Source of the DNA: Octopus vulgaris
Taxonomy: Eukaryota
Assembly: GCA_951406725.2 (NCBI GenBank)
Contig: OX597815.1
Location: forward strand, 114,948,001 to 115,012,000
Direction of reading: 5' to 3'
DNA length: 64,000 nt
The position numbers and the translations under genes were made by a program. Shown in pieces: positions 19,081-63,670 of the stretch. The notes beneath the pieces are model-generated. The model was not told the origin of the DNA, searched no databases, and was given only the letters and a program-made list of their open reading frames with translations. Position 1 is the stretch's first letter, and each line of letters opens with the position of its first letter.

Positions 19081-19424
19081 TGGAGATGTACTTGCATAGC
19101 GAGTGACTTGATCTGAGATCGTGTGCTGGAACGAAAACAATTGCAGCGTGGAAGGTGTTTATAAGCCATTTAAGAAACACACAAAACCGTTAGATTCTCT
19201 TCAACATTTAAATTTAATTTGTCAAAATATTTTCGTCACTTTGAGACCATGACCTGTTCACTGACAAAGCTTTGTGCTGCATCTCGAAGCTTTGTCAGTG
19301 AACAGGTCACAGTCTCAAAGGGACGAAAATATTTTGACAAATTAAATTTAAATGTTGAAGAGAATCTAACGGTTTTGTGTGTTTCTTAAATGGCTTATAA
19401 ACACCTTCCATGCTGCAATTGTTT
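19081..19424. mobile_element. fold-back Penelope-type insertion with 138-bp inverted arms and a 12-13 bp target-site duplication
   Basis: Arms 19135-19272 and 19287-19424 with a 14-nt spacer. (T)ATATACTAATTA occurs at 19068-19080 and 19424-19436. Confidence 0.85.
19218..19268 (-). ncRNA. minimal type-I hammerhead ribozyme, G3-C8 variant
   Basis: TTTGTCA-GTGAACA-G-GTCAT ggtctcaaa GTGAC-GAAA-ATAT-TT-TGACAAA: 7-bp stem I, 5-bp stem II, palindromic stem III. Mirror copy on + at 19291-19341. Confidence 0.7.
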
Positions 19425-44016: not shown

Positions 44017-44122
44017 ATGCTAGCTATGGCAGTACATATTCTAAAATTGGAATGATGCAAAGAAGATTAGCATTGCCCCTGTACGAGGATGACAGGCAAA
44101 TTCATGAAGCATTTCATATTTT
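44017..44122 (+). pseudogene. U6: U6 snRNA processed pseudogene (near full length, mutated)
   Basis: GGCAGTACATATTCTAAAATTGGAATGATGCAAAGAAGATTAGCATTGCCCCTGTACGAGGATGACAGGCAAATTCATGAAGCATTTCATATTTT aligns end to end with U6. The ACAGAGA box is mutated to GCAAAGA. Confidence 0.92.
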
Positions 44123-45120
44123 CTCACCCTTGCTAGCTATGGAGATGACACAAAAGACTCTCAGATAATACAAAATCCAGGAAATATTGCACCTCTGCAA
44201 TGGGAGTTGGATGCAATATACAGGTGGGCTGAGGACAACAACATGCAGTTTAATGCAGGAAAATTCCAAGCCTTGTACTACCAGTACACAAAGCTGAATA
44301 ACATGCAGACAGTATACACTGGCCCAGGAGGAATTGTAATCCCTGAATCAAGATCAGTGTGTGACCTGGGCATTGACATGAGCAATGATGCATCTTTACA
44401 AGTGCATATTACCAATTTGGTAATAAAATGCAGATGGCTAGTTGGATGGATCCTCTGAACTTTCAAAACAAGAGAAAAGGAAACAATGATGGTCCTTTGG
44501 AGGACATACTTCCTCAGCCACTTGGACTACTGGTCCCAACTATGGTCACCACACAATATAAAATTAACAGTGGAACTTGAAGCAATCTAATGAAGCTACA
44601 CAAAGAAAATTGCCTTAATGCAACATATCAACTACTGGGAAAGACTGAAAGAATTAAAACTCTTCTCTCTAGAATGAAAGCAGGAAAGATATGCAATGAT
44701 ATGCATCTGGAAAATCCTGAAAGGCCTTGTATCAAACTTTGGCATTGAAAGTTACATACACAGCAGAATAGGGCACCACAGCATACTGTCAATGATCCCA
44801 GCATCTCCATCTGCAGGACGTGATACTGCAACAGCTTGTGTTTCAAAGGTCCACAGCTCTTCAATATCCTTCCATAATGCCTGAGAGACTTGCATGGGGT
44901 GGATGTAGGTGTCTTCAAAACAAAACTGGATTTTCTCCGGTCAAGGTTTCCAGATGAGCCTACCTCATGGCAGAAAACATGGATGAAGGCAGCATCATCA
45001 AATTCCCTCATTCACCAAATGCCACATATCAGAGGAAGTTTCAAATGCTGGTGTAGCACAGTCAGTGGTGGTGCCCCAGCATGACTGCAGCTTCAAAGCT
45101 GAAACAATTTAAAGATTAAA
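44123..45120 (+). mobile_element. 5'-truncated CR1/L2-group LINE fused directly to U6
   Basis: LASYGDDTK (YADD box), LDAIYRWAEDNNMQFNAGKF, CDLGI, HLDYWSQLWSP, YWERLKELKL, FKTKLDFL. The 3' end is GGTGGTGCCCCAGCATG...GCTGAAAC. Confidence 0.9.
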
Positions 45121-50111: not shown

Positions 50112-50498
50112 TACAGTTTTATATTTAAGAGATGAGGAATTCTGTACATTATTTACATTTGATGGATATTTATTCTCATCTTGTTTGTTGTTAACACAGT
50201 GTTTCCGCTGATATACCCTCCAGCCTTCTTGAAGTGTTTTGGGGAAATTTCGAACCTAGGTTCTCATTCCTAAGGTATTTTTCTATGTTATTATCATTAT
50301 TATTGTTGTTGTTGTTGTTAGTGTTCAGGTCACTGCTTGGAATCGAACTCTAACAAATAACATCGAAAAATATCTTAGAAATGAGAACCCAGGTTCGAAA
50401 TTTCCCCAAGACACCTGAAGAAGGCTGGAGGGTATATCAGCTGAAACGTGTTAACAACAAACAAGATGAGGACAAATATCCGTCAAATGTAAATAATA
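50112..50498. mobile_element. fold-back Penelope-type insertion with hammerhead remnants and a 12-bp TSD
   Basis: TGAATTATTTGA at 50100-50111 and 50499-50510. Arms at about 50148-50292 and 50357-50497. GACAC-CTGAAGA(50415)-A-GGCTG..CAGCT-GAAA(50443)-C-GTGTT, with the cleavage triplet deleted in this arm. Confidence 0.8.
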
Positions 50499-59306: not shown

Positions 59307-59686
59307 GTAACGAAATTATAAAAATACCACAAACATCATATAACTATATAAAACACACACACACACATAATCCTTGGATAGAATTTATAAACATTTAATG
59401 CATCGCTATGTGTGTTTCCACAAATCACAACTCTTAAGATCATAGTCTGTATTCCTAGGATGATAACAGTGTAGTTCGTAGTATCCATTGGTATCAGGTT
59501 GATCATCTTCAGTGATCCATTTCTTCAGGTGATATAGCATTAATGGATGTACAGCAGAGGGATGCTTATCCTTTTTGACCAGTATGAAGGCTAATAGGAG
59601 CTTTATTTGCATATTCAAAACATTTTCCACAAACAAATTTAAAAGATATCTATATTTATATTTATATCCACCCATCCATCCATAAG

Positions 59687-60277
59687 AATAGGACGAATGC
59701 TGCCGTTGATTAGCTCCAAGAGGCCATTGCCTCTAGCTAGCTATGTGACACACAAACCTGTGTCCATTATAACCTTCGAACAGGGGAGGTCAGCAGCTTA
59801 CCCTTGCTGGTCTGGCATCCACAGACTAGTTTTGAGGTGGTTGCTTCTTATCAATGTGGAGTAGCCGAACCCATCAGGCGTCACTGCTGACCGACTGTTC
59901 GAAGAATTATTTACCTAAATTCAGTAAAAACCAGTGGATGTATTCCACTGAATTTAGGTAAATAATCCTTTGAACAGTCGGTCAGCAGCGACGCCTGCTG
60001 GGTTAGGCCACTCCACATTGATAAGAAGCAACCACCTTGAAACTAGTCTGTGGATGCCAGACCAGCAAGGGTAAGCTGCTGATCTCCCCTTTTCAAAGGT
60101 TAAAATGGACACAGGTTTGTGTGTCACATAGCTAGCTAGAGGCGATGGCCTCTTGGAGCTAAACAACGGCAGCATTCGTCCTATTTTTCTGGACTGCCAT
60201 GTTAGCTTGGCGATAACTATTAATATCCAATACTACTGCCATAGTCTCCTTTAGAGAGAATTAGAAATAATGATATT

Positions 60278-60278
<1 letters not shown>
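59687..60278. mobile_element. fold-back element with 239-bp inverted arms carrying a U3-A8 hammerhead
   Basis: Arms 59687-59925 and 59947-60185 with a 21-nt spacer. The right side continues to a (TA)n tract. Confidence 0.85.
60012..60054 (+). ncRNA. minimal type-I hammerhead ribozyme, U3-A8 variant
   Basis: TCCACA-TTGATAA-G-AAG caaccac CTT-GAAA-CTAG-TC-TGTGGA: 6-bp stem I, palindromic stem III, GUC site. The mirror copy (59818-59860, minus) has the same TTGATAA but GAAA is changed to AAAA. Confidence 0.72.
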
Positions 60279-60355
<77 letters not shown>

Positions 60356-60358
<3 letters not shown>

Positions 60359-60702
60359 ATAATAAGAAAATTGAGATATTGAAGTAAATAAGAATTTATT
60401 ATAAGCAAAAAATCGATCATTATCCCTTACAGCTGTTTCAATTAAACTCAGTGAAATTTAATGAGTATTAAAATCATATTTCTGAGCTTAATCTCTTCAG
60501 AGGAAGGAAGAATATACCCTTAGATATTTTATATGTTAGTTATTTGAATCATCATGGCAGTATAAGATTAAGCTCAGAAATATGATTTTAATACTTATTA
60601 AATTTCACTGAGCTTAATTGAAACAGCTGTAAGGGATAATGATAAATTTTTTTGCTGATAATAAACTCATATTAACTTCAATATCTCCATTTTCTTATTA
60701 TT
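60356..60702. mobile_element. fold-back element with a canonical hammerhead
   Basis: Arms at about 60356-60494 and 60566-60702, directly after a long (TA)n. Confidence 0.8.
60423..60505 (-). ncRNA. type-I hammerhead ribozyme with canonical C3-G8 core
   Basis: TTCCT-CTGAAGA-GATTAAGCTCAG...CTGAGTTTAATT-GAAA-CAGCTG-TA-AGGGA: 5-bp stem I, 12-bp stem II, palindromic stem III, GUA site. Confidence 0.8.
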
Positions 60703-61959: not shown

Positions 61960-63670
61960 GAAGCTGTTGTTTTTAGTAGTGGTGCTGAATATTTCCAGTT
62001 TAACTTTGGATTTGAAATTCTTATAAAATATTTTTCTTTTGGTTTTTATAGTTGATCACTCCTTTCCTTTATTTTGAAAAAAATTAAAATTTTGAGTTTT
62101 CCACTTGCACAAATATCTAGATGTTCACCACATGGAACATTTTCAAGAGATGAATCTTTGACTTGTTTATGAACCATAACCCAATCTACAAATTTTGATC
62201 CTGTTTGGCTAATATAATACTCATTGCAATGTGGGCATGTGATGTAGTAAATGAGATTTTTGGTTTTGCAATTCATATTTGCATTAACCTTCAGTTCCTT
62301 CTCATTCTCAAATTTTTTGGTTTTGCCCTGTTCAATTAACTCACATGTCCCACAAAACAGATCTTTACATTTTATTACTTGCTTTTCTTTTCTTCTTCTG
62401 GAGTAAATTTCACATTTGTTAAGAGTCTTTCAAGATTTGGTGGCTGTCTTCAGCTCTTAATAATTTGTGATTCTTCAGTTATTTCCTGAGTTTTGTGACT
62501 GGTATAGAATTGGAAGGTATTGTTTAACCAGCTGTAAGATATTATAGTTTCTAGCATTATGGGTGACTAGGACATGGAATATTTATGCTTTTGTTTTTAT
62601 CTTTACCCTCAGTGTGAGAGGTTCTCTATAAAACAGAGATTGAGATCTCTTTTACATTGGTTACAGTATTATTTACTAAAGTTTTCAGGTATTTTTGCTA
62701 CTAAAGGAATATTTTTAATTCCACCAGTCATCTCATTGACTAGAGCATATAATAATTGAACATATATGTATTGCTATATTAAGAGGGATATTCTTTTTAA
62801 TATATGATGGGTGACAAGATCTAAAATCTAAGGACTGGTGTGTGTCTATGTTTTTGCAGTAGAAATAAGCTGTAAAAATCACATTTTCAATAATTTTCAA
62901 GATGTCCAAAAAGAAAGTTCCCTTTCATTCATTTTCATAGTGAATTGGACCAATTCATTAATTTCAGAAATCATGTAAGATCTTCCTTAATTCTGTTCCA
63001 TGATATGAAGCAGTCATCCAGGAATCTTTTCCAGTTTTGTTTTAAATAGAATAGGAAATGCTGATTAAGTAATCCTAGATCATCAGGCATAGAGTGATTT
63101 TTCTTCAAGAAATCCTATCACTTGTGTTGCAAATGTGGGTGTAACTTTCATGCTCATTGCTGTCCCTTTTATTTGAAGGAATTATTGGTTATTATAGAAG
63201 TTGTGGCACTAATTGTAATCCTGCTAGGATAAATTCTTTTTAGAATCTCTCCTGAATTCTGTTTGGATATTTGTCTATCCATATCCAGAATTATACTGCT
63301 CCCAATCCTAATTCATGGGGGTTATTTATGTAGAAGCTGCTCATGTTGAAACTAACCAGGATCATCTCTATATTTACTCTTTCTAGAACATGGTTTAAAA
63401 AGTTCATATAATTTCTGATGAAACTAGGGACCAAATTTCAAAATTATGTCCAGTAAATTGATTAATTGTTTAGTGCTTGATGTTGTCTTGTGACACTTGG
63501 GCATAATTTTACATCAGACACTTTGGCAGTCTTTACATATGGTGTACTAAAGTCCTTTAAACAGATATGAATTTCTTAAGATTTATAAAGTTTTGGTAGT
63601 TCATAAAAGTTATTTGTTTTTACCTCCAAATTAGTCAGTAATCCAACATTTTTTTTGTTAACCTGTTAGC
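61960..63670 (-). mobile_element. Penelope-like retroelement pseudogene (RT, Cys linker, GIY-YIG endonuclease; Neptune-like)
   Basis: LVSFNMSSFYINNPHELG, QIKGTAMSMKVTPTFA, WKRFLDDCFISW, FLDI, LDFRSCHPS, KCKDLFCGTCELI, NCKTKNLIYYITCPHCNEYYISQTG. Many stops and frameshifts. Confidence 0.9.

Follow-up and report, generated by a model that had tools for sequence, protein, structure and literature searches.

The locus near the end of the DNA stretch analysed here (64,000 nucleotides, referred to as the window) is best read, with a probability of roughly 0.8, as a decayed insertion of a protein-free retrozyme of 361 nucleotides, which belongs to a family with a U3-A8 hammerhead and for which a Penelope-like RT-EN was the likely agent of insertion into a TA tract, both of its own hammerheads being predicted inactive. 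Judged from sequence, the repeat is a dispersed non-LTR retrozyme with a family-wide U3-A8 type I hammerhead. The U3-A8 swap and the retrozyme element class are both already published (PMC3088659, PMC4209133, PMC7229834). A partial literature search found no paper on this family, which may be listed in the supplements of PMC4209133 or PMC7229834.

The locus consists of a full family unit on the forward strand (59927-60282), which is without only the 5-nucleotide link to a next unit, and of an inverted partial copy of unit positions 21-267 on the reverse strand (59679-59925), which lies head to head with it and is the left arm of a fold-back. This fold-back measures 515 bp (59679-60193), with arms of 247 nucleotides which are 94% complementary, and not 239 bp as given in a preliminary description of the window. 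The window copy reads through the first of two preferred 3' ends of the family (60220-60229, forward strand, unit position about 300) and stops at the second (60267-60282, forward strand, unit position 341-356), where it adjoins a (TA)n tract (60280-60355, strand not assigned) as the likely insertion target. On the far side of this tract lies an unrelated AT-rich fold-back (60358-60702).

As had been described, the right arm contains a hammerhead with a U3-A8 core, a 6-bp stem I and a GUC site (60012-60054, forward strand), which is of type I. It is built of stem I (60012-60017), the core TTGATAA (60018-60024), the stem II region (60025-60038), GAAA (60039-60042), the palindrome CTAG (60043-60046), the letters TC, and stem I' (60049-60054), with a predicted cut after 60048. 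TTGATAA was also correctly placed in the opposite arm, where the type I hammerhead on the reverse strand (59818-59860) has the U3-A8 core and, where the right arm reads GAAA, the letters AAAA (G12A at 59833), and is predicted to be inactive. The hammerhead sits at the tip of a long imperfect hairpin predicted for the unit (59967-60099, forward strand). A strict hammerhead descriptor had two matches in the window, the right-arm motif and a motif at 19298, and none in 150 dinucleotide shuffles, so that the window motif is not due to chance. Rfam at the gathering threshold detected only a U6 copy in the whole window and left the hammerhead model unmatched. This U6 snRNA copy (44017-44123, 84 bits) has several substitutions and may be a pseudogene.

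The repeat family and its hammerhead

A 23-mer from outside the ribozyme yielded 476 exact matches in the 2.8-Gb genome and a control none. Ninety loci were sampled among the matches listed (100 of the 476), all on contigs C1-C3, and removal of duplicates left a set of 86 loci (four removed) and a set of 85 (five removed); two overlapping loci were taken out of the set for the subfamilies with a CAUG loop. Two-hammerhead dimers have a unit period of 361 in four of five matches and of 360 in the fifth. Among 31 segments which reach the first base of the unit, 28 are joined upstream to the unit's own end, and no other shared sequence was found upstream of the unit start in these 31. None of 60 loci contained an RT-like frame in the unit or attached to it, and stop-to-stop frames of 150-222 codons lie across a few of the copies. 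The unit is predicted to be highly self-paired, with a fold z of -5.55 and none of 100 shuffles folding as well. In the CAUG subfamilies, at least 27 matches have two or more hammerheads, trimers included, with units of mostly 358-365 nucleotides. Loci L220-L239 belong to these subfamilies, which are about 80% identical to the window unit, are richer in dimers and trimers and mostly have A-U at 10.1-11.1.

Core searches left positions 3, 7 and 8 free. U3-A8 was present in 35 of 37 family cores in the first search, in 49 of 55 segments picked via a motif outside the ribozyme, in all 37 parsed cores of the CAUG subfamilies and, by hand count, in 94 of the 100 matches listed out of 102, the rest being three C3-A8, two U3-G8 and one U3-U8; C3-G8 was absent from these 100. 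As U3-A8 dominates in these samples, the swap is, at the level of sequence, the ancestral state of the family and not private decay, and CTGATGA, the consensus under which the preliminary description would have regarded the changes as decay, is not that of the family.

The co-occurrence of three pair types at 3-8 in the window had been taken as covariation evidence, which is a weak argument. The G3-C8 copy is real: hammerheads with this pair are found at 19298 (forward strand) and 19261 (reverse strand), in a family with G3-C8 in 48 of 54 cases. The only C3-G8 candidate found in the window (core at 50415) is in a copy without the usual UH site. Both motifs belong to families separate from the 361-nucleotide unit, so that the three types represent three unrelated repeat families. 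The two arms of the fold-back, which differ at 16 sites, six of them CpG-type transitions, have two private changes in common (60027 and 60072) and thus come from one template, so that at 3-8 they show no covariation. Within the family, two-sided changes at this pair occur in 0 of 91 distinct alignment rows. As to the other two families, a fold-back at 19135-19424 holds both G3-C8 hammerheads, and its family forms tandem arrays with a period of about 230-245 bp on contig C31; a fold-back at 50148-50497 is a member of an abundant family (1198 matches) whose minimal hammerhead has C3-G8, and in some copies of this family, including the right arm of this fold-back, three bases at the cleavage site are missing.

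The proposal that the arms, CTT-GAAA and CTC-AAAA, are two outcomes of deamination of one CpG agrees with the family data. In 60 copies of the window subfamily, a sample leaning to the query, the 11.1-12 step reads CG in 40, TG in 13, CA in five, and AG and TA in one each. Thirteen other CpG sites decay symmetrically (TG 147, CA 157, CG 681), which supports CTCGAAA as the ancestor of the window subfamily. Among the matches listed in the wider search (100 of 210) the step is TG in 90, CG in seven, CA in two and AG in one. The asymmetry at the C11.1-G12 CpG was considered as a sign of selection on G12 and discarded as a test, as the TG excess is a state inherited in older subfamilies (U11.1). 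At 10.1-11.1, usually G-C, these have G.U or A-U, and their loop 2 is CAAAUA, which presumably is the Schistosoma loop. A minor state of 15% was reached by none of 13 core columns and by 21 of 295 other non-CpG columns, a contrast which alone is not significant; about ten of the 21 variable columns lie in hammerhead helices and loops.

For the helices, an alignment (A1) of 94 copies with 91 distinct rows was used, with 18 of 112 segments omitted, mostly segments with indels, plus three sister copies of the same insertion. Over the distinct rows 93.4% of helix cells are paired. Two-sided changes are seen in stem I (C-G/U-A in 32 rows, A-U/G-C in 17) and in stem II (A-U/G-C in 34, G-C/A-U in eight), and the covariation score is 0.255 compared with 0.048-0.132 when the partners are slid. 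The number of pairs with a two-sided change, five, is not above that in shuffles (335/500). The covariation represents about five subfamily events and not 91 independent ones, and as far as sequences can tell helices I and II are supported by compensatory change between subfamilies. Stems I and II and loop 3, and not the 3-8 pair, are where the aligned sequences really covary; among diagnostic columns of the long hairpin outside the hammerhead no clear compensation was found. Loop 3 is CUAG in 52, CAUG in 46 and non-palindromic in two of the matches listed (100 of 210, hand count). Self-duplexes of the palindromes have calculated energies of -6.2 and -6.0 kcal/mol, which a single change raises to -1.1, and such self-pairing fits the dimer model of PMC4209133. 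All 17 adjacent unit pairs are CAUG/CAUG, the first unit of each being fixed by the search. The earlier conclusion, that the hammerhead fold is real, has U3-A8 in its core and goes back to a CTCGAAA ancestor, thus holds, by way of the family core counts and the covariation in stem I and in stem II as well as in loop 3.

Insertion footprint, RNA and proposed mobilisation

Of 133 3' ends in the 85 loci, 114 cluster at two sites, unit positions 294-303 (51) and 341-356 (63), and the 20-nucleotide flanks of the ends have a mean A+T of 79%. Inverted segments occur in 41 of the 85 loci, with the 3' ends outward in 38 of 39 adjacent inverted pairs. No target-site duplication was evident by eye. The 5' ends are scattered and do not peak where the cut is predicted (3 of 80 compared with 6.7 expected), so that this sign of in vivo cleavage was absent. 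Penelope-like elements are described as forming partial tandems, with 5' copies that are inverted and a tail which is optional (PMC8557442), and for Poseidon of Anolis two internal start sites and cleavage at ATT on both strands are described (PMC11167929); the distance between the two 3' ends here, about 55 nucleotides, exceeds the 30-40-nucleotide tail described for Penelope-like elements. Non-LTR retrozymes have been linked to Penelope-like elements in a preprint where one of nine tested Xenopus dimers was cleaved (Li et al. 2026, bioRxiv 10.64898/2026.07.22.740005).

In the proposed mobilisation, source copies would be transcribed as multimers, in which two hammerheads would pair via their palindromic loop 3, with a cut after GUC to release monomers, and these may circularise. 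A Penelope-like enzyme would nick AT-rich DNA, prime at either of the two internal sites and copy round the unit, and if both ends of the break served for priming, two outward-facing arms would result. Each arm would then decay neutrally after insertion, including one CpG deamination apiece at C11.1-G12.

Three raw RNA runs (X21-X23) from an organism which may not be the species of the window (organism B) contained 327-470 unit reads per 11.5-12.9 million. Among them is a single, nearly uniform variant whose U3-A8 core is intact and which crosses the cut site and the end-to-start join, with 32-42 reads per run at the boundary, an agreement of 0.98-1.0, and about equal mate directions. No pile-up of ends at the cut site was found in the three runs, the reads crossing it uncut or religated, and they fit either a circle or an uncut tandem transcript. 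An exact 22-mer search did not find the dominant variant in its own genome. In locus L070 (1420-1773) about half of the reads of organism B carry letters which are rare in contigs of run X19 (at 1469, 82 of 147 reads compared with a depth of 9 of 25,981), which points to a single source locus or to an RNA that accumulates.

The absence of 5' ends and of RNA ends at the cut site would also be expected if the hammerhead shape had been kept for protein binding or protein-assisted folding, self-cleavage being slow or dispensable for spread. The hammerhead of Anolis, which cut only with protein added and mutants of which inserted normally in vitro (PMC11167929), lends this some substance. A circular or multimeric template, however, would leave no 5' ends at the cut site either, and subfamilies which differ by about 20% have retained both the core letters and the loop-3 palindrome, so that a role of this kind appears rather unlikely.

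Fate of the hammerheads in the window copy

While intact copies of the subfamily have a stem II of GAGG/CCUC with a calculated energy of -3.5 kcal/mol and a predicted pairing probability of at least 0.98, in the right arm one position of this stem is an A.C mismatch and another a G.U pair. This stem is predicted to form with a probability of 0.0, at a forced energy of +1.5 kcal/mol. The underlying G-to-A change at 60027, absent from the preliminary description, is present in both arms, so that the left arm combines this mismatch with G12A. G12 is required by hammerhead ribozymes. The pattern of N3-UGA-N-N8-A, GAAA and UH with a Watson-Crick 3-8 pair is found in the family and in the right arm, and the left arm departs from it at G12.

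That the right-arm motif is an active ribozyme might be argued from its intact core letters, stem I and GUC site. Against this stand the stem II prediction, the fold predicted for a transcript with both arms, which is one duplex without a hammerhead (probability 0.0 for stems I and II), and the lack of a second hammerhead on the same strand near the window copy, as needed for a dimer. Activity of this motif is therefore improbable, and on the fold predictions the hammerheads of the window copy are probably dead, the left by G12A and the right by a collapsed stem II. With a stem II that by prediction does not form, the right-arm motif, which had been proposed for an in vitro cleavage test, is a poor choice of substrate.

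Relation to Penelope-like elements and known retrozymes

An autonomous Penelope-like element with intact RT + GIY-YIG frames of 781 amino acids is present in the genome (loci L198-L203 and L174-L197), with an upstream frame of 479 codons in L201. About 100 nucleotides from its end this element has a U3-A8 hammerhead of its own, the palindrome of which is CAUG, and it has two 3' ends about 37 nucleotides apart, both into (TA)n. A U3-A8 core was found in 20 of 30 loci with GIY-YIG. The Cys linker suggests, by analogy with PMC8557442, a position in the Neptune clade. Comparison of the unit with a small sample of 42 GIY-YIG loci (blastn, word size 7) returned short weak matches and no homology, the sole long match (L186) being a unit copy downstream of an element; the 781-amino-acid element is therefore only a candidate helper. 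A segment of the window at 62760-62863 has a 104-nucleotide match (71%) to a GIY-YIG-bearing locus (L204) and is possibly an old Penelope-like fragment. It may be speculated, at rather long odds, that autonomous Neptune-like element and 361-nucleotide parasite both use U3-A8 and that the youngest subfamilies of the parasite adopted the CAUG of the element, with possible helix III pairing and cutting or loading in trans, the intact variant being an abundant circle, possibly of both polarities.

Instead of being an element in its own right, the unit might just be a terminal repeat (pLTR) that persists as truncated ends of an autonomous Penelope-like element. Its insertion footprint is the same as that of Penelope-like elements, Xenopus retrozymes match pLTRs (bioRxiv 10.64898/2026.07.22.740005), and the 42 GIY-YIG loci compared come from 6136 first-look candidates. 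The long segments, however, run from unit start to unit end in 28 of 31 cases and never into other shared sequence, pure dimers and trimers exist, and the 60 loci are free of an attached RT-like frame, which makes this origin very unlikely. A MITE, or fold-back DNA transposon, in which a hammerhead-like motif arose by chance, as the near-perfect 515-bp inverted repeat could suggest, is largely refuted by helix covariation, the shuffle control and locus structure, since 44 of 85 loci are without the inverted arm, terminal inverted repeats are not fixed and the arm ends differ within the window locus itself, and hardly any weight is left for it.

As a non-LTR retrozyme, the family resembles those of other metazoans, which measure 350-390 bp in mussel and 330/350 bp in axolotl (Cervera and de la Pena 2020, PMC7229834), in unit size, which is about 170-400 nucleotides in this class, the lack of a coding frame, a self-paired fold, monomer, dimer and multimer copies, and a single type I hammerhead in each unit, its stem I of 6 bp and its stem II of 4 bp. 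The one-pair helix III with a palindromic tetraloop is also that of axolotl Amex1. It differs from them, as far as described, in having U3-A8 in every subfamily and G.U and A-U at 10.1-11.1, and in consisting mostly of dispersed partial tandems with inversions, with no long arrays found; it is known here from sequence and reads. Natural U3-A8 covariation has been described before, with in vitro activity cited from earlier work (Perreault et al. 2011, PMC3088659), and about 1,300 minimal hammerheads with U3-A8 belong to the Cercyon Penelope-like element of Schistosoma (Cervera and De la Pena 2014, PMC4209133). The compensated core pair is the same in the present family, which in contrast to the minimal hammerhead of the Cercyon pLTR has canonical geometry in a non-autonomous unit. 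Like endonuclease-bearing Penelope-like elements (PMC8557442, PMC11167929), it forms partial tandems, carries at its 5' end a 5'-truncated copy in inverted orientation, has two 3' ends, targets AT-rich or (TA)n DNA and has a hammerhead near the end; it differs from them by the wider spacing of the 3' ends, the missing RT-EN frame and the lack of homology to the sampled elements.

The insertion ends tie the retrozyme to Penelope-type priming. The family provides natural evidence of a dimer-forming palindrome and a helix geometry kept across about 20% of sequence drift, and since natural dimers and a candidate helper frame are available intact and one variant is expressed, both mobilisation by Penelope-like enzymes and the need for cleavage become testable.
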